Notes under the pieces: generated by a model | Database searches by the model: none | What the model saw: only the letters and a program-made list of their open reading frames with translations | Told to the model about the DNA's origin: nothing | Translations under genes and position numbers: made by a program | Shown: positions 5,573-54,683 of the stretch, piece after piece | How the letters are laid out: the number at the start of each line of letters is the position of its first letter | Numbering within the stretch: the stretch's first letter is position 1 | IMG/VR virus record: IMGVR_UViG_2595698513_000001 | Span: 30,745 to 94,744 of that record | DNA length: 64,000 bases | From: a virus | Lineage: Duplodnaviria; Heunggongvirae; Uroviricota; Caudoviricetes; Demerecviridae | Strand: one strand, 5' to 3'

Positions 5573-6317
5573 AATCGGCACAGCTTGTCCACACGCAGTA
5601 GGCGAGCCAGGAGTTGATGCAACGCAACTAATCCTTGCACATCAGCTCTATGGTAATGTAGACCCTGATTCACTAGAATTGAGTCCGGTATCACATCACC
5701 ACTTGAACTGGGTATTTGACCTAGAAACATATGCAACTAATCAGAATGCAATTGTACCTGAGCTATCAGCAGTAGCATTTGATATTCTTTCTGGTGAAGT
5801 ATTTCATGAAGCTACGTTCCACATTGATGTAGATTCTCAAGTTGCTCTGGGGCGCGAAGTTTCAGCTTCTACGTTATCATTTTGGCTAATGCAGTCAGAA
5901 GATGCTCGTCGCAAAATGTTGCTTGCTGATGCTGAATATTGTGAGAAAAATGACTTACCAGCACCTCTGCAAATTGGTGGGGCTATGGCTCAGCTAAGTC
6001 ATATTATTAAGACAGTATCAGCTACATGGGCTGAACAAACAGGTCTTAGTAAAGAACCTATGGTATGGGGTAACGGTATCACATTCGATTTAGGTAAAAC
6101 TATTTCATTATTTGAAACAGCACAAGTTCCTTTGCCTTGGCAATTCTGGGCAGAGCGTGATGCACGTACATTGATGGATTTAGCTCCAGGTATTAAGAAA
6201 GCATTTGGACAAGATTTCCAAGGCATTCCTCATTACGGTCTAGACGACTGTAAACACGAGCTACGTTACTTGTCTGCTACTTACATTAAAATCTGGGAAA
6301 TGAGCAAAAACGATTAA
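5559..6317 (+). CDS. DEDDh-type 3'-5' exonuclease (DnaQ-like)
   Basis: VFDLETYATN exo motif I; HYGLDDC motif III; RBS AGGAG. Confidence 0.6.
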   Translation: MPENKIGTACPHAVGEPGVDATQLILAHQLYGNVDPDSLELSPVSHHHLNWVFDLETYATNQNAIVPELSAVAFDILSGEVFHEATFHIDVDSQVALGREVSASTLSFWLMQSEDARRKMLLADAEYCEKNDLPAPLQIGGAMAQLSHIIKTVSATWAEQTGLSKEPMVWGNGITFDLGKTISLFETAQVPLPWQFWAERDARTLMDLAPGIKKAFGQDFQGIPHYGLDDCKHELRYLSATYIKIWEMSKND

Positions 6318-9221: not shown

Positions 9222-9345
9222 CCAAATTTCTGAATCTACTATATAAAGCACTAAGGTCAACGGTACAGTAGTTGGTAACGGGGTTCGAGTCCCGACTGGG
9301 GGTGTAAGAGACCCCGAGTGACGACCTAATTCAGAAAATATTAAA

Positions 9346-9374
9346 TTGCTAAACATCACGATTTAACGTATAAT
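9346..9374 (+). promoter_or_regulatory. T5-type early promoter driving tRNA-Thr
   Basis: TTGCTA-17-TATAAT; leader AGTTACATAAAGTTGAGAAACGAATC lacks GGAG and runs into tRNA at 9404. Confidence 0.65.
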
Positions 9375-42769: not shown

Positions 42770-43918
42770 ATGAATCTAACACAGAACCAAGTATTAAAAC
42801 TATCTATAATCTATAAAGTATATAAAGGCATTACAAAAATAAGTGAACTTGACGACGATGATAAAATCGTTTTCGCTACTTGCACCAAGAGATGCATGAA
42901 TACTAGTAAAGGGGAGAAAGAGCGTTGGGCACCAGATTGGCAAGCTTTAGGCTTCTCTAAGCTAGGTAGTAAAGAGCGTGACGCTATCTGGAAAAGAATA
43001 GCTGAATTTGTTCATCAGGCAGTGCAAACCAAACAGAGCCTACCTAGAAAAACTATGGCAGCCCAATGGGAGGACTTCGCAGAGCTAGATGAAGATACTA
43101 TTAAGTGTATAAATAAAGAGGAAACGTCTTTCCAGAATGTATATAATATCTATGAAGGTACTAAAAAGGTAGTACACAAACGACAGATAGAGAAGCTATC
43201 AGATAAGCTAGGTGGTGAGAGCGCTGATGCTAAGGTTATTGAGGTACTCAAGAAACTTAACCCTACTATTCCACAGATCGCTGCAATTCAGCGATACATC
43301 AACATTGCAGTTCGTAATAAAACCAAGGCTAGAATTGATATGTTTCTACTACCAGAGCATATTTTGGAACTGCGTAATAAGTTTAGGGAGAAAGAGTTCA
43401 GCACTATCCCACTAATAAGCTTTAAAAAGGATGCGGAAAAGATCATTGCTAACCTAGGGTTGTGTGGCTATCGAATGGCACTAGTAGAACCTGTAAAGAA
43501 TAAGCAAGGTGATATAGCTTTCTACAAACCTAAGGAGATTCTAGATGTACTACAAGTTAAGCTATTACAAACTAATGAGCTAATGGGTTTAGCCTCTATT
43601 TATAAGCACGAGGGTAGACCTACTCAAATGTTTCTAGGAACCACAGGTGATACAGTTAAAACTAGAATCACCCCTAAACAGTATATTGATCTAATACTAC
43701 AGAGATATGAAGCTAATAAAGAAGTAATTGATAAATATATAGACAAGCCTAAGTCTTTCTATATTAAGTCTATTAAAGACGAACCTTATCAATGGAATTA
43801 CGAAGCTATTGCATTAGATATATTCCATAATGAGAAGTTAGCGTTAAACCCAGAACTATTTATGCTAGTTCCTATTTTTCAAGATAAAGAACCTGTGGAG
43901 TGGTTAAATGAAATTTAG
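42770..43918 (+). CDS. hypothetical 382-aa protein
   Basis: After promoter 42716-42744; RBS AAAGGAGAA. Confidence 0.6.
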   Translation: MNLTQNQVLKLSIIYKVYKGITKISELDDDDKIVFATCTKRCMNTSKGEKERWAPDWQALGFSKLGSKERDAIWKRIAEFVHQAVQTKQSLPRKTMAAQWEDFAELDEDTIKCINKEETSFQNVYNIYEGTKKVVHKRQIEKLSDKLGGESADAKVIEVLKKLNPTIPQIAAIQRYINIAVRNKTKARIDMFLLPEHILELRNKFREKEFSTIPLISFKKDAEKIIANLGLCGYRMALVEPVKNKQGDIAFYKPKEILDVLQVKLLQTNELMGLASIYKHEGRPTQMFLGTTGDTVKTRITPKQYIDLILQRYEANKEVIDKYIDKPKSFYIKSIKDEPYQWNYEAIALDIFHNEKLALNPELFMLVPIFQDKEPVEWLNEI

Positions 43919-44267
43919 ATATTTAGGGGATGTTTACAGCATCCCTAGAAAAACATTCGACTTCTGTATTGCTAGAAACTTACTGCGCAAGCTTTTCGCG
44001 GAGGCTATACCAGACAATCCATGTCATGAACGTCAAACGTTCTTTATTCTCAGTACATACGACCCAGACTTCCGCTGGTTTAGCGCAAGCTCTAAGAACC
44101 CAAAATATTATAAGAGATTCAATGATACTGTCAAGCACCTAGCAATACCAAATCTCACCAAGAATCAATGCAAGTTCTTGGACAAAATTACTAGAGAACA
44201 AGAGGATTTTCGTGATGCCATTAAGATAGCCAAGGAAGCTGTAAAAACCATATACGAAATTTCTTGA
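43908..44267 (+). CDS. hypothetical protein; last early-region gene before repeat region
   Basis: Overlap-coupled ATG. Confidence 0.5.
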   Translation: MKFRYLGDVYSIPRKTFDFCIARNLLRKLFAEAIPDNPCHERQTFFILSTYDPDFRWFSASSKNPKYYKRFNDTVKHLAIPNLTKNQCKFLDKITREQEDFRDAIKIAKEAVKTIYEIS

Positions 44268-44291
44268 CAGTTACACAAAGAACCTTTATAA
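44263..44291 (+). promoter_or_regulatory. perfect-consensus sigma70 promoter TTGACA-17-TATAAT firing into non-coding repeat region
   Basis: Both hexamers and spacing exact; no ORF longer than 20 aa downstream. Confidence 0.6.
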
Positions 44292-44544
44292 TATACTAAA
44301 GCCCAAAGGAAATTCTGGCAGGGCTAGGTGTCAGTGCTTGCATGACCGACTACATCTAAGGAGAGTCTGGAGCGAGCACTGAAGAACCTTGACCGCCGCG
44401 CTTGTATAAGGGGGAGTCTTATATGAAGAAAATTGTAAATATAGATGAACAGAATACGCCCCGCTATTCAATCCTAGTGCTATGATTATTACCCTAGTCT
44501 TTCCTATGAGAGCCTAGGGTTTTCTTATATCTGCCTACATAGAT

Positions 44545-45009
44545 TTTGCACCCTAGAATCTGCACCAAAATATCCTCCCTAGCTTGGGCAAATTTAGTGC
44601 GAAGCACATATCTAGCCCAGATTCCCCATGTCAATTCTAAAGCCTAGGATTTGCACCTATTGTATAAGGTCTTCTGATTATAGTATTAGTCGGATTGAGA
44701 CCGGTTCAAGGAGCGACCCCCGTAATTGTCAATTGGTTTTTTCAAAAATCTGCACCAAACGCCCCAAAACTTTATTTTCCTCCATAAAACCCACCAAATA
44801 GCACCAAAATCTCCATATATCTCTAGAATTCGCACCTACCTCACCGCCCTAGCACCTATCAATTTTGCACCTCCCCCAATAGCGGCATGTTTTGTGCGCA
44901 GCACGAGTCTAGCCGCAGATAGGGGTGTAGTTTTTGCACCTACATAGAATTTGCACCTATAGTTTTCGCACCTACATGTATCACTTTTGCACCAGTCGGA
45001 TTTGCACCC
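44545..45009. repeat. iteron-like array: at least 13 copies of (T)TTGCACC(T)
   Basis: Copies at 44545, 44559, 44650, 44749, 44829, 44851, 44864, 44931, 44950, 44963, 44985, 45001; irregular spacing. Confidence 0.7.
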
Positions 45010-45090
45010 GCAGGCGCAGAGGATTAGAGGTTGCTAATAAAGTATGCCCTAAATTAGTGATCCCTATATTAGTGATTGCTTATAGACTTC

Positions 45091-45150
45091 TAGCCATCCA
45101 GCCATCCAGACGTTTAGCCGTCTATCCGTCTAGCCATCCAGACTTCTAGA
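45091..45150. repeat. short tandem repeats AGCCATCCAG x3, CCGTCTA x2, ACTTCTAG x2
   Basis: Read directly. Confidence 0.7.
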
Positions 45151-45203
45151 CTTCCGTATGCCATACCGTATAAAATATGGCACGATTTTTGCTTATTAAA
45201 AAG

Positions 45204-45299
45204 TTATCCACAACTGTATATTTATACATGGCTCTAAAACGCTCTATACAGAGTTATCCACAACCTTATCCACCGCAAAACTACTGTATATTTATACAG
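45204..45299. repeat. DnaA-box cluster (2x TTATCCACA, 1x TTATCCACC) interleaved with two copies of palindrome CTGTATA-TT-TATACAG
   Basis: Boxes at 45204, 45254, 45266; palindromes at 45213 and 45284. Confidence 0.65.
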
Positions 45300-45550
45300 T
45301 GCTTTTCAGGTAGCAGATTATTCCGAATACCGTTTAAAGCTCCTATAAGCCTCGCTAACAGCATCCTAGCGTCATAGCAATACCCTAGCAAGGGGTAAGC
45401 CCTAAACAGCCCACACGCAGCACATGCAAGAACCATGCCAACCTGCCCGACGGGCGCGGTCAAATGAGAACTATTCTCATTTACATGTTTACAGTACGCC
45501 ATACGGTAAAAGGCAAAAAATTACAGCGTCATAGTGACGCTGTAACAGTT

Positions 45551-45772
45551 TTAATCTATTTGAAAATCACGCACTATCTCTAGAAACTCGCTGATTAAAA
45601 TTCCATCACATCGAATCTCTTCATCGCTCATATGCAAATAGCGTACCACAAATTTATCGTATTCTATTTGCTCTATTGACTCTACTAGCTCATTTTTATA
45701 GTACAGTGGGCGGAAACCGGATTCTTGCAAATGTTGCAAGAATGATACTAACATTTCACTAGGTCTTAACAT
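45551..45772 (-). CDS. hypothetical small protein (minus-strand island)
   Basis: ATGA-coupled to upstream gene. Confidence 0.45.
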   Translation of the reverse strand: MLRPSEMLVSFLQHLQESGFRPLYYKNELVESIEQIEYDKFVVRYLHMSDEEIRCDGILISEFLEIVRDFQID

Positions 45773-45966
45773 TACCAGTTAGCCTCCAATTGATAAAGCT
45801 TCTCAATTACATCGAATTGCTCGCCTTGCTCATTTTGCCAAACTTGCCCAAATTCGGTGTTTTCTACGTGCTTCATTGCCATAGGTATTGTGTAATATTG
45901 CATTTCCCCCATAAATGCAATATTACACATCCAGACTTGCCCTAGTGTTTCAACGTGCTGTTTCAC
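45772..45966 (-). CDS. hypothetical small protein
   Basis: Part of collinear minus-strand block. Confidence 0.45.
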   Translation of the reverse strand: MKQHVETLGQVWMCNIAFMGEMQYYTIPMAMKHVENTEFGQVWQNEQGEQFDVIEKLYQLEANW

Positions 45967-46226
45967 TGGTCTAACTCCAATCCAAGGTAATAGAAAGCAG
46001 TGGCGAAAAAGTAACTAATCAAAAACTGGTCACTAAACTCATAATGACCGGATACACTAGCAATACCTATCCAACCTGTAATAAAAACTAACAATCCATT
46101 AACATGAAATAAGCTTTTCATTTTTCAATCACCAAAATCTTGTTATAGTCCATCCGTACAGTAAAAAACGGCTTGCCATTTCTAACCGCCCACAATAGGG
46201 CGGTAGCGTAGTTGTCAAATTCCATA

Positions 46227-46544
46227 CTAGGCTTTTAACCAACCATTAACAAAAGTTGCGCCCTCATAGATAGCTCGCCATGTTAACAAGTCAGCCCTAG
46301 CATACTGAAAAAGCATACCGCCATTAGTTGCGCCCTTAGCAAAAGCAATAGCATACGTTAAAACTTTTGCTTTAAGAATTTCCTCGACTGACTCAAACAA
46401 GCTAATGTGAGTTGTCAAGTCAAAATGATACTCTTTGTTTGACAAAAAGCATTGCGCCATTTCCATACGCTTGCTGATACTAGTTTCTGCGTTTAGTTGG
46501 TATGCAGTGCTTACTACTGGATTAGTTAGATATTGCTTGTGCAT
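46227..46544 (-). CDS. hypothetical protein
   Basis: Minus-strand block. Confidence 0.45.
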   Translation of the reverse strand: MHKQYLTNPVVSTAYQLNAETSISKRMEMAQCFLSNKEYHFDLTTHISLFESVEEILKAKVLTYAIAFAKGATNGGMLFQYARADLLTWRAIYEGATFVNGWLKA

Positions 46545-46571
46545 TTTGTTGTCCTCGCTTTCTAGCGGTAA

Positions 46572-46964
46572 TTAATGTTTTGTAGCTGTCATAATGCAAT
46601 CAGGATTTTCCCCGATTACGGTATATTCTTCTATAGCACGCTTGCCAGCGCTCTCCCAAGATTGGTCGTTTTTTGTTTTATTAGCTACACCGTGTAGGTA
46701 ATAGCCGTTACCAGTATCACGCTCTAATGAGAATGGTTTACCCATATCAAAAGCATTGTTATAAAAGTGATGTTCCCAAGTACCCTCGACATCAAACCAA
46801 CGCCACATATAATGCTCGAACATGGCTTTCATTTTGTCAAGTGCTAGCTGACATTCAACCTCGCTGATAATATCAGCCTCAAAGCCGTTGCGAACAATAG
46901 CAACCGCTTTATTCCAACCTAGTGAATCAATAGTTTCAGACAAAACAAGGAAATCAATTTTCAT
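46572..46964 (-). CDS. hypothetical protein
   Basis: Minus-strand block; start chosen at MKIDFLV. Confidence 0.4.
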   Translation of the reverse strand: MKIDFLVLSETIDSLGWNKAVAIVRNGFEADIISEVECQLALDKMKAMFEHYMWRWFDVEGTWEHHFYNNAFDMGKPFSLERDTGNGYYLHGVANKTKNDQSWESAGKRAIEEYTVIGENPDCIMTATKH

Positions 46965-47060
46965 GGTAAAACCCCTCGCCAAAATCGGTGGCGGTATCCG
47001 TTTAGGCATCAATTGCCTAGGTCTTTATAATACTAAAACCTAGGCATTATGTAAAGTGAT

Positions 47061-47381
47061 TTAGTTCACAAAATGGTAATCTATTTGGTCTATGCCAATT
47101 TCACGCCATACCATAGAACTTGTATCTAGTCCATAGTTATCTAGCATAGCAGATAAATCTGTTACACAATCTAGGTCGCACATCCCCTCGATACCCATAT
47201 CAGAGTTATAGAACATCATACAGAATGCAGGGTGTACCATAACTGCTAGTTCGTTGTCAGCGTCAATATACCAGATGGTAGATTCTGGGTCTTCTACAAA
47301 ACTGCTACGTTCTTCCTTGACATAGCGCACAATTGAGTCAAGACTCAATAGAGTAGGTGTTTCGTTACAGTTAAAAGCCAT
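47061..47381 (-). CDS. hypothetical acidic protein
   Basis: First gene of minus-strand block. Confidence 0.45.
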   Translation of the reverse strand: MAFNCNETPTLLSLDSIVRYVKEERSSFVEDPESTIWYIDADNELAVMVHPAFCMMFYNSDMGIEGMCDLDCVTDLSAMLDNYGLDTSSMVWREIGIDQIDYHFVN

Positions 47382-47735
47382 ATTATTTCAATCTCCAATA
47401 AGGGTAAAATCCAATTGCCATAGCTAGGCAAAATGCGATACTGAAAACTAATTCAAACATACTATGCCTACCTTGTCAAATAGTTTTTTCATACTAGCAG
47501 CCGTAGCCACACACTCGCCAGTCTCCGTACTGACACACCACCAAATAACATCAAAAAATATACGATACATTTTTTAAGCCCTCCGTGTTGGGTAGGTCTA
47601 TATAGTATCAATTCTAGCTCATTTGTCTAATAACGTTTTGTTATAAGCGGCAGCAAAACGATGCCCAGGCGTTATAAGCGCTGTAAGCGATTTTGAGAGG
47701 TTTTATATAAAAGCCTTACTTTAATATGTCTAGGT

Positions 47736-47846
47736 TGTGGATAACCGCTTAGAATGGATTCTACAGCCTAGAAACGCCATACTGTTATTTATAAGCTGTG
47801 ATTTAGGGTAGATAACTTTCGTTTTCCTGTTGATAAGTTGTGGATA
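47736..47846. repeat. inverted DnaA boxes TGTGGATAA and TGTGGATAT
   Basis: Complement orientation of TTATCCACA; matching palindrome copy at 48067-48082. Confidence 0.55.
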
Positions 47847-48310
47847 TACAGTATATAACCAGTATTATTAGACTTTGCTAATGTGAATAAGTCTGTTGAT
47901 AAAAAGTTGGCATGAAACCTGCTAGTGTATGCAAAAGTCGTGCCATGTCAAAAATCGTGCCAACTTTTCGAAATTTTCCTATTTGCTGCGAAAAGAATGT
48001 TTTAATACTAGGGCATAGCTAAGGGCTAAAATCGCTTAGAATCGCATACAGAGCGTTTTAGCGATACTGTATAAATATACAGTTAGTTGACTTTACTTGA
48101 AAAGTATGCTACACGCGCGCCCGTTCCTTATATTTGTGGGCAAAATTCGCTGATAGCCAAAACCTATCAATCTAGTGATTTTTAAAGATTTAAACGATTA
48201 GACTAATTTTCAAGATTCGCTATTATATACCCATACCAACGAGACAGGGCAGCAACAAAAACCCTAGCGAGTTGAGTATAGAAAGACTGAAAAGTTTTTC
48301 AAAAAAGTAG

Positions 48311-48339
48311 TTGACAAGCCAAACGGCTTTTGAGATACT
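48311..48339 (+). promoter_or_regulatory. candidate pre-early promoter TTGACA-17-GATACT
   Basis: A-tract upstream; ~165 nt before the 48504 CDS. Confidence 0.5.
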
Positions 48340-48413
48340 ACTAACGTTCTCAAGGGAACACGCTCTTTAAAAATTTGGAATATGCGATTTGACCTATTGC
48401 TTACTTGATTGGA

Positions 48414-48470
48414 TTGTTTGAGTGTTAACCGTTAACCGATTCATTGCGAGTCGGTTAACTGAGAAACACT
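48414..48470 (+). promoter_or_regulatory. nested inverted repeat in 5' UTR of first pre-early gene
   Basis: GAGTGTTAACCG...AACCGATTCATTGCGAGTCGGTT...AACACTC. Confidence 0.5.
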
Positions 48471-48503
48471 CTCATTTAACTAACCTATTAAGAGGAAAAT
48501 ATC

Positions 48504-48974
48504 ATGGCTAAGAAATGGACAGAAGAATCAGCAGCAAAAGCAGCAGAACTTTACAATGCTAAACTAGAAGCAGACGGTAAAGAAGCAGCAGCACACAACG
48601 ATTTTCTAGACACAATTGCAGCGCACGCAGAAGTGCAAGCCGTGTCAGGTAAAGCGGTTCGCTCAAAACTGACAGTTATGGGTATCTACCAAAAACCGGA
48701 CGCAGTTGCAAGTGTTGCGAAAACTAACACAGTGCGTAAAGAACACTATGTTCGTGCTCTAGCTCACAGCTTGAAAGTTGACGCAGAAGAACTAGACAGC
48801 CTCAAAAACGCTAAAATGTCAGCCCTAGCAGCTATCACAGAAGCTATTGGTATCACTGATATTATGGCAGCAAGCGCAAAAGATTATACGCCTAATGAGT
48901 TGATTCTCATTAAAGGTTTTGCGTTAGCGAATGGTATAGACCTAGCCGATATTGTAGACGACTTGGAAGACTAA
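48504..48974 (+). CDS. pre-early-region protein (Ala-rich, acidic)
   Basis: RBS AAGAGGAAAA; follows promoter 48311-48339 and 5'-UTR hairpin. Confidence 0.6.
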   Translation: MAKKWTEESAAKAAELYNAKLEADGKEAAAHNDFLDTIAAHAEVQAVSGKAVRSKLTVMGIYQKPDAVASVAKTNTVRKEHYVRALAHSLKVDAEELDSLKNAKMSALAAITEAIGITDIMAASAKDYTPNELILIKGFALANGIDLADIVDDLED

Positions 48975-48982
48975 CCCTAAAC

Positions 48983-49047
48983 AATTAAAGGGGAAATTTC
49001 CCCTTTAATTTACAGTGTAAATTGATGGACAGTTTACACTGTAAATT
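48983..49047 (+). promoter_or_regulatory. 28-bp perfect palindrome plus double-palindrome operator-like element (copy 1)
   Basis: AATTAAAGGGGAAATTTCCCCTTTAATT then AATTTACAGTGTAAA-11-TTTACACTGTAAATT. Confidence 0.6.
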
Positions 49048-49070
49048 AACCCATAATTGGAGATAAAACC

Positions 49071-49442
49071 ATGTCAAATCAAACTCAAATCATTGCGCTA
49101 GGTTCACTATTAGAAGCAGGTAATGCAAAAAGTGAGCTACAGCAAAAAGTGTCTAAACTGATTAACGTTCGTTTCGGTTGGCGAGTCAATGACCGTATTT
49201 CTAGCAAAACATTGCAAACCGTAATTGATTTAATAGAAAATCACGGCGGTAAAAAGCTATTCAACCCTAGCGAGCTAGATTCATTAGTTTATGCTAATAA
49301 AGCGGCAAAACTAACCGTGTTCAGCCTACTATGTGAAGCGTTAAAAATCACTGAGCTAACAGAGCGTAAAAATATTATGTCTATTGTTACTAGTGGCGGT
49401 GAACGTGAATTTCCGGTTCAAGTTCTAAAGGCATTCAGTTAA
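49071..49442 (+). CDS. A2-sized (123 aa) pre-early protein
   Basis: Size and position upstream of the A1-like gene, as in T5 FST DNA. Confidence 0.4.
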   Translation: MSNQTQIIALGSLLEAGNAKSELQQKVSKLINVRFGWRVNDRISSKTLQTVIDLIENHGGKKLFNPSELDSLVYANKAAKLTVFSLLCEALKITELTERKNIMSIVTSGGEREFPVQVLKAFS

Positions 49443-49450
49443 TAACGGGT

Positions 49451-49515
49451 TTACGCCCTTAAACTAGGGCGTAAATTTACAGTGTAAATTGATGGACAGT
49501 TTACACTGTAAATTT
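49451..49515 (+). promoter_or_regulatory. hairpin plus double-palindrome operator-like element (copy 2)
   Basis: TTTACGCCCTTAAACTAGGGCGTAAA then the identical 38-bp AATTTACAGTGTAAATTGATGGACAGTTTACACTGTAAATT. Confidence 0.6.
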
Positions 49516-49543
49516 CAACCAACCCCATAGCGGAGTATAAACA

Positions 49544-51199
49544 ATGTCTAAAGTATTAGTAGAAAACAAAGCGCAAATCCTTAAACTAGCAAAAGGCGAA
49601 AACTTTTGGGGCAAACGCCTTGACTCAAAACGTCGTGAGGTTGCAATCTCGATTCGTGATGCTCTTAAAATTGATGTACATTCTAGCAAGTTAATTGAGT
49701 TTCTGGACGATAACAAACCAGTAAACAAGACGCAGAAAAAATCGCATAGTCAGCAAGCGAAAGAAGATATTGAGCCAACGTTTGCAGGTTCAATGACAGG
49801 GCGTGATTATGAAAACCTAGACGATGGTTTATATATCATTACAGCAGCCCAAAACAATACACGCCCACACCCAGTATTAAATACTTTGTTGTCAATGGCT
49901 AAATCGTTGGATGCTGAGTTCGGTATCATGCCAATTAAATACACAACAACGTTGCAAGGTTTGGAGCGTAAAAAGCCTAGTTTTCACGCAGAAATCAAAA
50001 AGCATTTACTTGATTACACTGATACATGGTTGGGCGGTGAAGGTAACGTGCTACTCGCTAACAGTGCTCAAATTCTACCGACTGCAAAACAACCTATCAA
50101 TGCAGCCGAAAAGCTAAACACTGGCGAATCAATGACAGTAGTTGCAAGCCCTAGACGACAAACAAAAACCCTACCACGCCAGAAAAACGGCTCACATCGT
50201 TGGGTTTATACAACGGCAGTTTGTACGCTTAAACACTACACTGACAGTCGTGCAGGGGCAGAAGCGGAAGCAGAGCATTGTTTCGGTGGTATCTTGATTC
50301 AAGTTACTAACGGCATGGTTAATCACCGTCGATTAGTAGCAGACGAAAACGGCGTTATTGTTGATAATGGTTCGGTGTACTTCCCTGACGGTACAATCAA
50401 AGCTTACAATGATGTATTTGACAATCAGCCCGTAATTGTGCTAGGTGATTTGCATTGCGAAAAAATGTGCGACGACTCATTCACTCGTGCAACAAATTGG
50501 GCATTCGCTCAAAACCCTAAACTGATTGTTGTGCATGATGCTCTAGACTTTATGAGCCGTAATCACCACAACCGCGAGGACTGGACATTCTTATACCAGA
50601 TGCAAGACCGTGCAGTAATCGAAGATTTAGCCGATGTTATTAATCACTTGAATGCACTTGCTGACATTGCGCCTGTCTTTATTGTTGAGTCAAACCATGA
50701 TTTAGCCCTTGATTCGTGGCTACGTGATAATAAATTCGATGTACGAAAAGACCCGAAAAACGCCCGTACATATCATGCTCTAATGCTTGCTTATATTGAA
50801 GCAATGGACAACGGCACATTTAACGACCTAGCAAAAATGGATTTAGCATTCGCAGCCCTAGCCGACCAATTGCCAGAACTGAGCGAAAATATCGAGTTCG
50901 GCAAAATCGACGAACAAAAACTAGCGTATGGTTATGATATTTCAATGCATGGTCACGTGGGTACAGGTGGGGCTCGTGGTTCGGCTGTCAGCTTTAAGAA
51001 AATGCGAATCAAAACCATCACAGGACATACACACTCACCATTCGAAGATAACAACAATATTGTTGTCGGTGTAACTGGTAGTATGGAAATGGGTTACAAC
51101 AAAGGCGGTACAACTTGGGACAGAGCTAACGCTATTGTTTACCCGAACTCAACTTGTCAGCTAATCCCTATGTACTTGATTGGCGAACAACAATACTAA
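49544..51199 (+). CDS. A1: A1-like metallophosphoesterase (551 aa)
   Basis: GDLHCE, NHD, GHTH calcineurin-like motifs; size close to T5 A1 (556 aa); adjacent to dmp-like gene. Confidence 0.5.
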   Translation: MSKVLVENKAQILKLAKGENFWGKRLDSKRREVAISIRDALKIDVHSSKLIEFLDDNKPVNKTQKKSHSQQAKEDIEPTFAGSMTGRDYENLDDGLYIITAAQNNTRPHPVLNTLLSMAKSLDAEFGIMPIKYTTTLQGLERKKPSFHAEIKKHLLDYTDTWLGGEGNVLLANSAQILPTAKQPINAAEKLNTGESMTVVASPRRQTKTLPRQKNGSHRWVYTTAVCTLKHYTDSRAGAEAEAEHCFGGILIQVTNGMVNHRRLVADENGVIVDNGSVYFPDGTIKAYNDVFDNQPVIVLGDLHCEKMCDDSFTRATNWAFAQNPKLIVVHDALDFMSRNHHNREDWTFLYQMQDRAVIEDLADVINHLNALADIAPVFIVESNHDLALDSWLRDNKFDVRKDPKNARTYHALMLAYIEAMDNGTFNDLAKMDLAFAALADQLPELSENIEFGKIDEQKLAYGYDISMHGHVGTGGARGSAVSFKKMRIKTITGHTHSPFEDNNNIVVGVTGSMEMGYNKGGTTWDRANAIVYPNSTCQLIPMYLIGEQQY

Positions 51200-51279
51200 T
51201 CCTTAGCCTAACGGCTCGACGGGCGCAAATGTGACGCCCGTCACACTTTACAACTTACCCATATTTGGAGATTTTATTC

Positions 51280-51918
51280 ATGAAAAAAGCATATGTATTC
51301 GACCTTGACGGCACAACAATTGATTCATTCCACCGTGTTGAGCCTTGCCTAGATTCACAAGGCAACTTAAACCTTGACAAATACATTAAAGAGGCTTGCA
51401 CACCTGAGAAAGTCGCAGATGATACGCTCTTACCACTTGCCGGATATATGCAACAACTAATTGAGCAAGGTGAATTAGTAATCATTCTCACAGCACGATT
51501 CATGCTTAACCATGATTATGTTTATTTACGCAAAAATAAACTACGTGCGCCAATCATTTGCAGCCGTGACCAGTTGCCTCGTGTATTTGGTGAAGGCAAT
51601 GCAGCCCGTATCAGTGCAATGTCAGACGCGCCATATAAACATGAATGGTTTAATCACTTGTTTGCTAGTATGCCTCAAGTTACTGAGTGGTGTTTCTTTG
51701 ACGACCACGACGGTATATTAGAAATGGCTAATCAATTAAAAGGTGTTACAGCTACCGACGCCAAATTGATGAATGAGCTGTTACAGATGCAATGGGCTGA
51801 CATTTACCGCCAAGGTGAACAGGACACCGCCGAGCTAATACAAGACCTAATAGATGAATGTTCAACTCAAGACGTGATTTGCAAACCGGAATGGATTGAT
51901 GAGCTTTTAGCTCAATAA
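51280..51918 (+). CDS. dmp: HAD-family phosphatase, candidate 5'-deoxyribonucleotidase
   Basis: VFDLDGTT HAD motif I; position next to the A1-like gene. Confidence 0.5.
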   Translation: MKKAYVFDLDGTTIDSFHRVEPCLDSQGNLNLDKYIKEACTPEKVADDTLLPLAGYMQQLIEQGELVIILTARFMLNHDYVYLRKNKLRAPIICSRDQLPRVFGEGNAARISAMSDAPYKHEWFNHLFASMPQVTEWCFFDDHDGILEMANQLKGVTATDAKLMNELLQMQWADIYRQGEQDTAELIQDLIDECSTQDVICKPEWIDELLAQ

Positions 51919-52065
51919 TCAAAGAAAAGCTGTACAAATAAGAATGGCTCTCAATTGAGAGCCATTATCATATAGGGGGCGGTAATGAGACTAGTTCTCA
52001 TTTGGCTATGGCGGTACACCCCCTATCTTGTACAACTTTGTGAAAATTGAAGATTCGAAAGGGTG

Positions 52066-52734
52066 CTATAATACCTGTATCAATGATTTTACCTCCTGTG
52101 CCATATTTTCATCTAAAAGCAGAAACTCCGTGCCACCGTCTCCATCAAGTTTGTGCCTAAACTCTACATAGTTATATAGAATACTACTCTCTATCTCTTT
52201 GGCAGCCTCTGTATTTCTTATTAGAATTATCTCCGGCTCTGTAATATTTTGCCCAGATGCTACTCGTTTTATCCTTGACTTTACTAACTGAGTAGTACTT
52301 ACCCCTATCTTGTATATATTGGTTGAAGGTACTCTCCACATGTATACAGTATTAAATATCTTGCCTGCGCATACTGGACATCCTGAGCCCCTAACTACTT
52401 GTCCATATTCTGCTTCCCATTCATGGGAGCATATATCGCAGTGGAAAAGATGCTTACTATGTCTATTTACATATGTAGATATTAATTTAATATTACCGTG
52501 TACTTCTAGTATATCGGATTCTGCTTCTTCTTGAGTACGTTTTCTAGAACTACAGTGAGGGCACTTAGTCCCTCTGAATATATTATCAGGAGTTGTTTTC
52601 CAAGTATGTTTCTTATTACACTTAAATGTGTGTTGTTTATTAGAGCCTTTATACGGCTCAGCTAACATGATTGTTTCTCCATGTATCTCTAATATACGTT
52701 TATTTGCTTCTTCTGTAGTTAACTTCCTGCCCAT
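52066..52734 (-). CDS. tandem zinc-ribbon protein with C-terminal GIY-YIG-like region
   Basis: Two CxxC...CPxC ribbons; VYMWRV...IYKIGVS...R...E spacing resembles GIY-YIG. Confidence 0.35.
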   Translation of the reverse strand: MGRKLTTEEANKRILEIHGETIMLAEPYKGSNKQHTFKCNKKHTWKTTPDNIFRGTKCPHCSSRKRTQEEAESDILEVHGNIKLISTYVNRHSKHLFHCDICSHEWEAEYGQVVRGSGCPVCAGKIFNTVYMWRVPSTNIYKIGVSTTQLVKSRIKRVASGQNITEPEIILIRNTEAAKEIESSILYNYVEFRHKLDGDGGTEFLLLDENMAQEVKSLIQVL

Positions 52735-52745
52735 ATAAACCTCAC

Positions 52746-54683
52746 TTATGCCGTACCCGTTACATAAAACCCAAATCGAGCTTCGGGTATCTTGTATACT
52801 ACATCGCGCTCGCCTAACTTGTTATAGTATGTGTTACGCCCCCATTCATTCGCCAGAATCTGTGCATTAGTTAGTTGGTAGCTTCCTACTAGTTCTACCT
52901 CATTCCTTACCCAGTTTACACGTACTTTATATCGTATACGAACTGCCTGCATCTTATTGCCACTGCTAGAAGTTGGCCAATAGCTTGAGCCGATTCTACC
53001 TTCACTATGCCTAGATAAAGATACATCGCGAATAACACTATATCCTAGATCTCCTACTATAATCTCTTTCTCTGGACGCGCACGCTCAAAAGTATATAAT
53101 CTTAACGCTGCCCAGCCATCGAACCCATTTACACTTGCCTGCATACTTGACTTTTTACCTGCAATCGTGCTGCTCGCCTCCCCGTGCATGTATATAGGGC
53201 TGATATGTACAGTTAAGTAGTTTTTACTAGTACTGCCTGGTGGTAGTTTGATCCTTTGTTTAACTATCTCTTTCTTATATACGCCTATATCATTAGGGTT
53301 ATATATTGAGATACGTGGACCACTAAAGGTCTTTTTCTGGAAGTATGTACCTTGCCGCAGTTGTGCAAATGTCTTAGTTTCTGCCGGAAATATCGCCGTG
53401 ATAGCTGTATCCCCACCAAGAATGTAGGGTGTGTATTTCCTAGCTTTAGATGCTATTAAAAACTCGCCTTTACTTCCTTTATATTTAATTTCATCAGCAC
53501 TAAACTCTAGCGATATATTACTCCCTAGCAACGCGGATGGACTATGTACTAGAGGTATTGTAGAAGCCCCACTAGCCCGCCATGCTTTAGTTTTCAAGTT
53601 ATACTGAAAGTAATGTAGGAATGGGTAGTCTGCTAGTTGAGACGGTGTTAACCCCTTTATTAGTTTTTCGAAATAAGTAGGCTTTACCTTATTGTATATG
53701 GTATTGAGTCTAGTGGAATCCATGCTAGTTTCCATTGGGGCTGGGTCTGATAGTAGCATACCATTCTTCATAGATAGGTCGCCAATAACCATATCTTCTC
53801 TAGAGATTTTAATACCATCTGCTTTAGGTGGTTTAACATGCTCTACATTATTTTGACTATTATATTTAACATTAAGAACATAGATTCTTAATTTAAAGTT
53901 ACTTGAAGATGGTTTGGTTGACGAGTACGTCAGGGTTTTAGGTGCTGATTGACTCTGACTTGAGAATACCTGTCTACCTGTACCTCCCCTACCAAATAAG
54001 TGTACCAAGTCTCTAGTTGGGTTAGAGTAATTGGCACTAGTGCTTCTTGAAGTCTTTGAAATATTTGCTGTTCTATAATATTGATAGTAAGTAGATATAG
54101 TGTCTCTTTGTAGTCCTGATACATTCCATACACCTTCCCTGTCAGATCTACCAGCTCTAATACCTTGATCTATATTCCAGTTTTTATCTTGTAATGCTGC
54201 CTTGAATACAGTAAGCGGATCCCAATGTCCATAGATATTACTTGTGTTCGGTACTGGGCTGCTAGGGTATGGTGAGCCATCCCTACCGAAAGAAGAACCT
54301 TGGAAATTACCTATAAATATGCCGAAACGACCAGCCTCTGGACTTCTAGATGTAGGAGTACCTAGAGGTGTGTGTGTTACAGTAGCATCATTGTAATATA
54401 CTTGTGTACCAAACATGATTTGTCGTTGATTAATGTAGTCCCATACTTTTTGTGGGACTATAGGTTCATAGTAGTGATCCCATCTTTTATATCCTTTTAC
54501 TGTTTCTACATGACGGAATTGGGTGATTTCTACTATATCATAAATTGCTAGATACGGGATATCAGAGTGAAATAGCGTTGACGCTATCGGTGCTCCATCT
54601 AGTTGTGAAAGAGACTCATTACCACTAGTTACATGCAGTAAAGGTCTATTATCTGAGGGCTTTCTGCCCATAAATAATGCCAT
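52746..54683 (-). CDS. pb5 (oad)-like receptor-binding tail protein, 645 aa
   Basis: Size (~640 aa) and position: divergent from terminase next to TR, as T5 oad; own consensus promoter. Confidence 0.4.
   Translation of the reverse strand: MALFMGRKPSDNRPLLHVTSGNESLSQLDGAPIASTLFHSDIPYLAIYDIVEITQFRHVETVKGYKRWDHYYEPIVPQKVWDYINQRQIMFGTQVYYNDATVTHTPLGTPTSRSPEAGRFGIFIGNFQGSSFGRDGSPYPSSPVPNTSNIYGHWDPLTVFKAALQDKNWNIDQGIRAGRSDREGVWNVSGLQRDTISTYYQYYRTANISKTSRSTSANYSNPTRDLVHLFGRGGTGRQVFSSQSQSAPKTLTYSSTKPSSSNFKLRIYVLNVKYNSQNNVEHVKPPKADGIKISREDMVIGDLSMKNGMLLSDPAPMETSMDSTRLNTIYNKVKPTYFEKLIKGLTPSQLADYPFLHYFQYNLKTKAWRASGASTIPLVHSPSALLGSNISLEFSADEIKYKGSKGEFLIASKARKYTPYILGGDTAITAIFPAETKTFAQLRQGTYFQKKTFSGPRISIYNPNDIGVYKKEIVKQRIKLPPGSTSKNYLTVHISPIYMHGEASSTIAGKKSSMQASVNGFDGWAALRLYTFERARPEKEIIVGDLGYSVIRDVSLSRHSEGRIGSSYWPTSSSGNKMQAVRIRYKVRVNWVRNEVELVGSYQLTNAQILANEWGRNTYYNKLGERDVVYKIPEARFGFYVTGTA

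Follow-up and report, generated by a model that had tools for sequence, protein, structure and literature searches.

What kind of DNA lies between the last early gene and the pre-early genes of a T5-like Vibrio phage, and does it hold back the incoming genome, form its end or initiate its replication? This question is raised by positions 44292-48503 of a window of 64,000 nucleotides (the whole stretch of DNA that was analysed). At 100% identity, the interval belongs to Vibrio phage pVp-1 (JQ340389, 111,506 bp), a T5-like phage of the genus Vipunavirus (Demerecviridae, subfamily Ermolyevavirinae) with a Vibrio host, and a window position equals the position in the pVp-1 record minus 30744. The initial annotation had described the interval as one repeat-rich non-coding element, either a T5-type terminal-repeat (TR) and injection-stop region or a replication origin. 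According to our analysis it is very probably composite and consists of a counterpart of T5 repeat region 3, the injection-stop region (iss), a block of small pre-early genes, and a counterpart of T5 repeat regions 1 and 2. The kind of element is therefore known, but the host lineage is new and was not covered by Davison's comparison (10.1101/866236). Some details are unreported so far, and the observations on LexA, sigma-54 and a terminus within iterons are of most interest.

We regard the region as a counterpart of the T5 regions because its iteron, palindrome and DnaA-pair module each show significant similarity to the T5 elements and follow each other in the same order. T5 repeat region 3 comprises IRD'-spacer-IRC', the elements DRC and DRE and nine copies of direct repeat D (DRD) (Heusterspreute 1987, Wang 2005 and Davison 2015/2020, as cited in bioRxiv 10.1101/866236); for the architecture of the T5 TR and the DnaA hypothesis we refer to Davison (bioRxiv 10.1101/866236). 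As in pVp-1, this region occupies the inner end of the long TR, beyond dmp-A1-A2 and small open reading frames (ORFs). The innermost pVp-1 iteron, GTCGGATTTGCAC, is identical to the DRD consensus at 13 of 13 positions, a score that none of 300 dinucleotide shuffles reaches. The local alignment of the T5 IRD' module scores 46 (shuffle maximum: 31), and window positions 48064-48083 agree with the palindrome at T5 9329-9348 in 20 of 20 bases. Common to both phages are consequently not only the iteron core GTCGGATTTGCAC and the palindrome (T)ACTGTATAWWTATACAG(T), but also a DnaA pair with a 3-bp gap, the overrun of the TR end by two to three iterons and a GCGCAG directly after the last iteron. If the left repeat of T5 is read in the orientation of the window, its elements are collinear with those of pVp-1: three DRD outside the repeat, the repeat end, a C-rich tract with CTGCACC and six DRD (T5 count) are followed by GCGCAG (the T5 7.9% nick site), short palindromic repeats, paired DnaA boxes and the palindrome. 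The A1 and A2 proteins of the two phages are only about 32-38% identical (A2: 38%). The near base-for-base agreement of iteron, palindrome and DnaA-pair module in spite of this divergence shows which parts are constrained and which are lineage-specific.

There are also clear differences from T5. Its TR is longer (10.1 kb versus 7.3 kb), and the host of pVp-1 is a Vibrio. Where T5 has two DnaA pairs and a fixed spacer between them, module A of pVp-1 (45170-45300) has one pair plus a single box, and its second palindrome is half-degenerate. The DRC/DRE palindromes are replaced by 15-bp repeats and a tandem array of 8-bp units, and a sigma-54 consensus is added.

The interval had been thought to be almost devoid of long ORFs. 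This view had to be abandoned, since six annotated genes lie on its minus strand and about 48% of it is coding; instead of a single non-coding element there are two untranslated repeat regions, A and B, which flank the small pre-early genes (Table 1). Five of the six small ORFs tested match PHROG families (E = 4e-38 to 1.6e-90), and no family match was obtained for the unannotated ORF at 45963-46121. The block is patchily conserved among relatives, and its genes are encoded on the opposite strand relative to ORF011-017 of T5, as in Davison's phage types 2 and 3. Region B (47571-48503), into which an extra ORF is inserted in VF16, corresponds to T5 repeat regions 1 and 2 (IRA, IRB, IRC-spacer-IRD and promoters P1-P4), which are likewise untranslated and separate A2 from the small ORFs. 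Both contain tandem promoters directed toward A2-A1-dmp, a mirror module of DnaA pair and palindrome, and a TGAGAAACACT-TCATTTAA element. However, the order of the sub-elements differs, and in pVp-1 TGAGAAACACTC is part of a covarying A2 leader hairpin. The placing of a T5-type TR and injection-stop region beside dmp/A1/A2 was well founded in view of the PHROG matches of these genes, the exact TRs in relatives and the ordered T5-like modules.

Table 1. Features in and around the interval (positions in the window; strand "." denotes unstranded features)
Feature	Position	Strand	Remark
Strong sigma-70 promoter TTGACA-17-TATAAT (12/12)	44264-44292	+	End of last early gene, toward repeat
Intrinsic terminator hairpin ACCCTAG...CTAGGGT with T-run	44489-44530	+	3' end of promoter-terminator unit
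Array of 13 iterons, (A/G)ATTTGCACC	44545-45008	+	Counterpart of T5 direct repeat D (DRD)
Palindrome GTGCGAAGCAC with GCGAAGC mini-hairpin motif	44597-44607	+	Core of first longer motif
Projected direct TR of pVp-1, 7,307 bp	44713-52019 (record 75457-82763)	.	Projection from VF16 and Ceto
Palindrome GTGCGCAGCAC with GCGCAGC	44894-44904	+	Core of second longer motif, inside TR
8-bp tandem array, about 9.5 units, AGMCNTCY (8-bp/16-bp period; AGCCATCCAG/CCGTCTA units)	45079-45154	.	
Sigma-54 (-24/-12) consensus TGGCACGATTTTTGCT, exact, module A	45178-45193	+	Motif match
Module A DnaA boxes: single (45204-45212) and pair TTATCCACA-ACC-TTATCCACC (45254-45274, 3-bp gap)	45204-45274	+	
Degenerate copy of LexA-type operator	45212-45231		
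LexA-type operator TACTGTATATTTATACAGTG, 18/20 to E. coli SOS-box consensus	45282-45301	.	Motif match; homologous to T5 palD/IRD'
CGGTCAAATGAGAACTATTCTCATTTA palindrome motif	45457-45483	+	Further + copies at 48452-48478 and 51981-52006
Bidirectional terminator hairpin closing the small-gene operon	45520-45546	.	Compensating stem changes in relatives
Six annotated small pre-early genes and one unannotated ORF	45551-47570	-	Counterpart of variable ORF block of T5 left terminal repeat
Module B DnaA boxes: exact (47736-47744) and pair (47828-47847, 2-bp gap)	47736-47902	-	
Module B DnaA pair TGTGAATAA-GTC-TGTTGATAA, 3-bp gap	47882-47902	-	Gap as in T5 IRC'
Sigma-54 consensus TGGCACGACTTTTGCA, exact, module B	47930-47945	-	Toward small genes
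Near-copy of sigma-54 consensus, module B	47949-47964	-	
LexA-type operator TACTGTATAAATATACAGTT, 18/20	48065-48084	.	Motif match
Sigma-70 pre-early promoter TAGACT-16-TATTAT for A2-A1-dmp	48199-48226	+	
Sigma-70 pre-early promoter TTGACA-17-GATACT with TG	48311-48339	+	
A2 leader hairpin directly 5' of A2 ribosome-binding site	48420-48471	+	Covariation
A2	48504-48974	+	PHROG match 2e-37
Conserved ORF between A2 and A1	49071-49442	+	
A1	49544-51199	+	PHROG match 3e-169
dmp	51280-51918	+	PHROG match 1.5e-39

In relatives of pVp-1 the same DNA is found at the record ends, mostly with two copies per record, and an exact long direct repeat is present at both ends in VF16, Ceto and eight further genomes (VPT02 was left out of this mapping, its record being opened inside the repeat). 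The TR of VF16 comprises 7,427 bp (PhageTerm-derived; both copies identical) and that of Ceto 8,301 bp (identical at both genome ends). The inner edges of the two repeats align to one base, window position 44713 (...GGTTCAAGGA|GCGACCCCCGTAATTG...), and their dmp-side ends coincide as well (52019|52020, ...GGTACAC|CCCC...). Since these edges are located at identical homologous bases, a TR of 7,307 bp can be projected for pVp-1, with 44713 as the presumed inner TR edge and right physical end of the virion DNA and 52019 as the presumed dmp-side physical end. The interval would then consist of about 420 bp of unique DNA and the inner 3.8 kb of the approximately 7.3-kb repeat. The supposed boundary is hence located within the interval, but at 44713 and not at the interval border, and sequence conservation peaks there (44700-44750). 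A2, A1 and dmp all read toward the terminus, and the last of these genes ends 101 bp short of the projected position. An ORF of 222 amino acids (52066-52734, minus strand) is situated directly past the dmp-side terminus. Nucleotide similarity to VF16 is interrupted over 52025-52751, which suggests that pVp-1 acquired this gene by insertion or replacement at its unique-DNA end.

In the pVp-1 record itself, dmp, A1 and A2 are internal and the TR DNA is present as a single copy, as in a permuted assembly opened at an arbitrary point. The GenBank/RefSeq record thus appears to be without the second copy of about 7.3 kb, and the projected TR implies a virion genome of about 118.8 kb. Records of this kind have been considered apparent sequencing or assembly errors, for which the difficulties of assembly software with large TRs were blamed (Davison, bioRxiv 10.1101/866236).

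The most conspicuous feature at the TR edge is the iteron array. At least 13 copies had been reported, and this number is correct for the GCACC core, which occurs 13 times within 461 nt and always on the plus strand (Poisson p ~4e-19). For the full motif TTTGCACC it is too high, with 7 exact copies and 11 at up to one mismatch. All seven exact copies lie within 44545-45008, compared to 2.2 expected in the entire window. The projected TR edge falls inside the array and leaves three iterons outside and ten inside the repeat. The same arrangement was observed in all ten genomes with both TR copies, with 5-8 iterons inside, 2-3 outside and none on the opposite strand. One exact edge sequence is common to seven enteric genomes and marks the site that T5 uses as well, while a different one is common to VF16 and Ceto. 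Absence of the repeats from related phages, or of any similarity to the TR/iss region of T5, would have spoken against the initial annotation; however, the repeats are kept in relatives and the similarity to T5 exists.

Repeats recognised by terminases flank the cut sites of other phages, for instance the R sites of lambda cosB and pacL/pacR of SPP1. By analogy, the pVp-1 iterons could belong to this class, since here, too, short repeats lie on both sides of the point where an end is formed. They differ by their single orientation, their irregular spacing over about 460 bp and their restriction to one genome end. This raises a real, if not the favoured, possibility, namely that the array is a DNA-end or packaging signal and not an injection stop. 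A phage protein, for example the small terminase subunit, would bind the repeats to either side of the cut site and direct the cut that forms the right genome end, and a stop, if any, would reside only in module A; for the rest of the region this is compatible with our explanation. The constant position of the edge within the array in 10 of 10 genomes and in the pVp-1 projection, the two exact edge sequences and the conservation peak exactly at the edge all argue in this direction. Some of the distant A1 lineages without DnaA and LexA boxes carry dense arrays of another 8-mer, as expected for a co-evolving phage-encoded binder. Moreover, the shear point estimated for T5 (~9618) separates all DRD copies from the entered, terminus-proximal DNA, so the iterons may be outside the cell during the pause. 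On the other hand, no iteron cluster was found at the dmp-side terminus, the binder of the array is putative and the packaging direction follows only from the principle of "last in, first out". In addition, an iteron that is identical in T5 and pVp-1 despite protein identities of about 32-38% would require a very conserved DNA-binding surface. Altogether, an array that straddles the genome end suggests a function in end formation and not in stopping, and this is the most plausible role of the iterons, because the end always lies within the array and because the iteron sequence is lineage-specific in distant relatives.

Module A, next to the array, and its counterpart module B (47730-48085) have their sub-elements in common but in inverted orientation, and they flank the small-gene block. 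Three forward and two inverted DnaA boxes had been listed. Those at 45204 (+), 45254 (+) and 47736 (-) are exact copies of TTATCCACA, while those at 45266 (TTATCCACC) and 47839 (ATATCCACA) carry one mismatch. With up to one mismatch allowed, 9 of the 18 DnaA boxes of the window (three exact, six with one mismatch) fall into the interval, although it makes up just 6.6% of the window (p = 6.5e-7). Boxes paired at a 3-bp gap start at 45254/45266 in module A and at 47882/47894 in module B. Module A contains one pair and one single box (45204), 50 bp apart from start to start, whereas enteric T5-like phages have two pairs at a distance of 61 bp; in module B there are two pairs with gaps of 2 and 3 bp, and single boxes. 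A base-by-base comparison of pVp-1 with five relatives from three genera revealed module A as the most conserved segment: positions 45150-45300 are about 98% identical (4.8-4.96 of 5 identical). The A2 coding sequence is less conserved than this, and the small genes are so by a wide margin.

Clustered DnaA boxes next to an array of direct repeats look superficially like a DnaA-dependent replication origin, which had been the second suggestion for this region. We consider this very improbable, because an AT-rich element is missing, the boxes belong to T5-type modules and the origins of T5 are located elsewhere. No AT-rich unwinding element is present by the boxes, region A having a G+C content of 40-46%, which is above its surroundings, and a strong C-skew. 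Like in the T5 iss modules, the boxes occur in two mirror modules, 2.5 kb apart, with a fixed spacing to the LexA-type palindrome. There is no replication initiator gene adjacent, and the T5 origins are near the genome centre with the replication genes outside the first-step DNA (Davison, 10.1101/866236).

The palindrome accompanying the DnaA pairs deserves special attention. The initial annotation had counted three copies of CTGTATA-TT-TATACAG, of which the one at 45284 is exact, the one at 48067 has AA in the middle and the one at 45214 contains a mismatch. If any two bases are allowed in the middle (CTGTATA-NN-TATACAG), the first two of these copies match fully and the third still has its one mismatch; the chance expectation is 0.04. 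Like the other motifs noticed at the outset, it is real and far above chance. It matches the LexA consensus TACTGTATATATATACAGTA at 18 of 20 positions at the two pVp-1 sites and at 19 of 20 in T5 (9330-9349; 6135-6154), while shuffles reach 16 of 20 at best. It is also invariant across T5-like genomes. The core CTGT-N8-ACAG is common to the LexA proteins of E. coli and Vibrio, and of the spacer variants compared in PMC8601168 the one with (AT)4 had the lowest baseline; the phage palindrome is one base away from this design, CTGTATATATATACAG. By its sequence, the invariant palindrome of the T5-like iss modules is thus a near-consensus LexA operator. Similar to operators of gammaproteobacterial LexA as it is, it differs from them by its position off recognised promoters and its fixed spacing to DnaA boxes, and no overlap with predicted or annotated promoters was found in either pVp-1 or T5. 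Davison's paper (10.1101/866236) makes no mention of LexA or SOS, and the searchable literature yielded no link between T5 and a LexA box. The DnaA and LexA motifs should be taken as candidate sites, to which the host proteins would be expected to bind.

Each module additionally contains one of the two exact matches to TGGCAC-N5-TTGCW in the window, and both of these sigma-54 motifs face the small-gene block. The motif is kept with differing flanks in all Vibrio and other marine relatives examined (seven lineages), and changes are confined to the spacer (ATTT, CTTT, ATTC, TTAA, ATCT or ATCC). Besides pVp-1, its carriers include L177, L183 and L192, and they comprise the marine clade and one distant metagenomic contig. 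The motif is present neither in the left terminal repeat of T5 nor in the enteric T5-like group. Activator sites were not identifiable.

Sites for DnaA, LexA and a sigma-54 polymerase with its activator might simply provide ordinary transcription control, with no role in DNA transfer. The module B motif indeed faces the small-gene operon, conserved sigma-70 promoters are present in region B along with a covarying leader, and repressors classically act at LexA operators and DnaA boxes (PMC8601168). Nevertheless, such an interpretation is unlikely for the modules as a whole, given that module A lies past the terminator of the small-gene operon, with no same-strand gene downstream, and yet is the most conserved segment. 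Neither a conserved ORF nor a conserved RNA fold was found 3' of its sigma-54 motif. The LexA-type boxes lie off the promoters in both phages, and the modules are placed in opposite orientation at the two ends of a highly variable gene block.

The distribution of the composite "TTATCnnC, 9-11 nt, CTGTATAWWTATACAG" also speaks in favour of a T5-type region. In 2.9 million viral contigs of IMG/VR 51 such stretches were detected, nearly all of them in contigs of 103-128 kb. A copy of the IRD' type is always preceded within 1 kb by 7-10 same-strand TT[TC]GCAC iterons, with no copies on the opposite strand, compared to 0-1 for a copy of the IRD type. For the family survey, loci were retrieved by the A1 protein, a scan of viral contigs for DnaA pairs alone being swamped by chance matches in small contigs. 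In 34 of the 56 A1-anchored loci the palindrome follows 30-31 nt past the start of the DnaA pair, and the top clustered 8-mer found de novo in most of these 34 loci is GTCGGATT or TTTGCAC. More distant A1 lineages possess neither DnaA boxes nor the palindrome. Some of them have dense arrays of other 8-mers (TATTAGCA x19, CCAAGATC x16, CCTGTAGG x13 and x8), which in the metagenomic contigs L206, L186, L232 and L237 (A1 about 30-47% identical) flank A1 on its A2 side. A contig end follows at a distance of about 0.7 kb from the array in L232 and L237. L192 contains 11 phased TTTTGCAC copies together with GCGNAGC mini-hairpin palindromes.

Some observations weigh against the assignment to the T5 regions. 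The pVp-1 record has one repeat copy, and for this reason its own termini are known by projection only. The TR starts recorded for three Thalassavirus genomes (Pontus, Quinn and Chester) differ by up to about 600 bp: one precedes the iteron array closely, one directly follows the last iteron and one falls within the 8-bp tandem array. This discrepancy reflects either imprecise ends or a cut site that is not fixed. We did not accept these starts as evidence for variable ends, as they disagree with VF16, Ceto and each other, and regard them as imprecise because these close relatives disagree among themselves. An apparent likeness of the TR edges of T5 and pVp-1 (TTGTCAA) was dismissed, since its local score equals the shuffle mean. 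Furthermore, the T5 rule of eight DnaA boxes in four pairs with constant spacer does not hold for pVp-1. Davison's own phage types 2-4 likewise deviate from it (10.1101/866236), and judged by its boxes the Vibrio clade is a variant of the DnaA-pair rule. Two-step transfer in T5-like phages of Vibrio is not reported in the searchable literature, and the expected effect of proteins that bind on the cytoplasmic side is to draw the DNA inward and not to stop it.

The homology, the mapping of the TR in relatives, the conservation and the motif statistics described here allow a model of the region, in which two-step transfer in pVp-1 and the matching of proteins to individual repeats would be predicted from sequence. 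The dmp end would enter first, and by homology A2, A1 and dmp would be expressed from the region B promoters. Module A, about 0.5 kb further in than the genome end, would be the best candidate for the pause site of first-step transfer, given its homology with IRD'-spacer-IRC' of T5, and a pause near it would last until A1 and A2 act. Module B has the blocks of module A in mirror orientation and is set beside two sigma-70 promoters and a structured leader for A2, A1 and dmp. The iterons would flank 44713, where the right genome end would be cut from concatemers, and are probably bound by a phage protein, while the terminator in front of the array (Table 1) would keep early transcription out of the repeat. 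In T5 it is A1 and A2 that restart the paused transfer (Davison, 10.1101/866236). What stops the T5 DNA is not known, and experimental studies of these sites are lacking (PMC10644984). Pauses of ejection in vitro correlate with nick positions (PMC2771126), and the 7.9% nick motif of T5 is conserved right after the last iteron. We infer that the pause belongs to module A and end formation to the iterons.

One could go a step further and assume that the stop module is a landing pad for several host proteins common to E. coli and Vibrio, namely DnaA, LexA and, in the marine clade, the sigma-54 polymerase. LexA and the sigma-54 polymerase would help to pause, anchor or time the transfer, and a phage protein would read the iterons for the genome end. 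The sigma-54 element could, for instance, hold RNA polymerase in a silent closed complex. This extension is speculative and in our opinion rather doubtful. A restart of transfer triggered by LexA cleavage is an attractive idea, as A1 degrades host DNA. However, T5 grows on recA hosts, and the searchable literature is silent on the idea either way; we did not adopt it.

Several further features surround these elements. A strong promoter at the end of the last early gene is found at the same place in Ceto, VF16 and VPT02 despite differing sequence, and none of the relatives examined lacks the downstream hairpin with its T-run, although the stem of Ceto differs in its bases. Together they delimit a unit (44264-44530) of 230-300 nt without conserved ORF, which is the last unique DNA before the repeat. 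Its folding z-score is -1.9 (44299-44530), and the alignment shows conserved ends and no clear covariation. It might encode a small RNA, or the early operon might just end here. No known RNA family was identified in 43500-53000 by an Rfam scan at E<=1, in which a single chance plastid match appeared. The annotated coding sequence pVp-1_0125 (44494-44634, minus strand, 46 amino acids) overlaps this terminator hairpin and three iterons and is probably not a real gene. Upstream of A2, both tandem promoters (48199-48339), which parallel the P1/P2 annotation of T5, are kept in most of the six phages aligned; Pontus has a degraded version of the second. In the A2 leader hairpin, 8 of 19 stem pairs show compensatory two-sided changes among six phages (22 predicted pairs in the whole alignment), and its 3' arm is the TGAGAAACACTC element, common with T5 IRC.

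The repeated AGCCATCCAG/CCGTCTA units noticed initially do exist and form the 8-bp tandem array (45079-45154). Copy number and unit orientation of this array vary among close relatives, and it is absent in more distant ones. The "metbox" recognised by MetJ is AGACGTCT. A MetJ-box reading of the array is no more than a side remark: five fixed columns agree, but the match is weak after allowing for phases and motif choice, and the array is restricted to close relatives. The two longer repeated motifs were likewise recovered, at about 44593-44618 and 44891-44914. The GCGAAGC and GCGCAGC of their cores fit GCGNAGC, an extraordinarily stable DNA mini-hairpin motif (PMC13037366), and the palindrome arms change symmetrically in relatives (ATGCGAAGCAT, TTGCGAAGCAA, GCCGCGAAGCGGC). 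A third motif, CGGT-AA-TGAGA...TCTCATTT, is present in three same-strand copies, the last of which is 13-38 bp away from the dmp-side genome end. It resembles the DRC/DRE/IRC elements of T5, and relatives whose A1 is 49% identical still have it. A search for AATGAGA-N7-TCTCATTT at 3 mismatches, a mis-specified pattern, gave no significant result. Reading the AATGAGA...TCTCATT palindromes as Fur boxes was not tenable, the best pVp-1 match having 6 mismatches and being no better than shuffles; in T5 there are sites with 3 mismatches, but shuffles reach 3 as well. Right after the last iteron, CGCAGGCGCAGAGG (45008-45022) aligns with the annotated 7.9% nick site of T5 (AAGCGCAGGG). The recorded repeat start of phage Quinn (1814) falls exactly at this nick-like site, and a nick might have been mistaken for an end in that case.

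The stop of T5 transfer after about 8% of the DNA has been unexplained for more than 50 years, and no dissection of the stop site that acts in cis has ever been made. The comparison of T5 with a Vibrio phage provides three leads in this respect: LexA at the invariant palindrome, the sigma-54 element of the marine clade, and iterons that always straddle the genome end. Finally, the missing TR copy and the arbitrary opening of records of the pVp-1 type matter for everyone who engineers or compares phages relevant to aquaculture.

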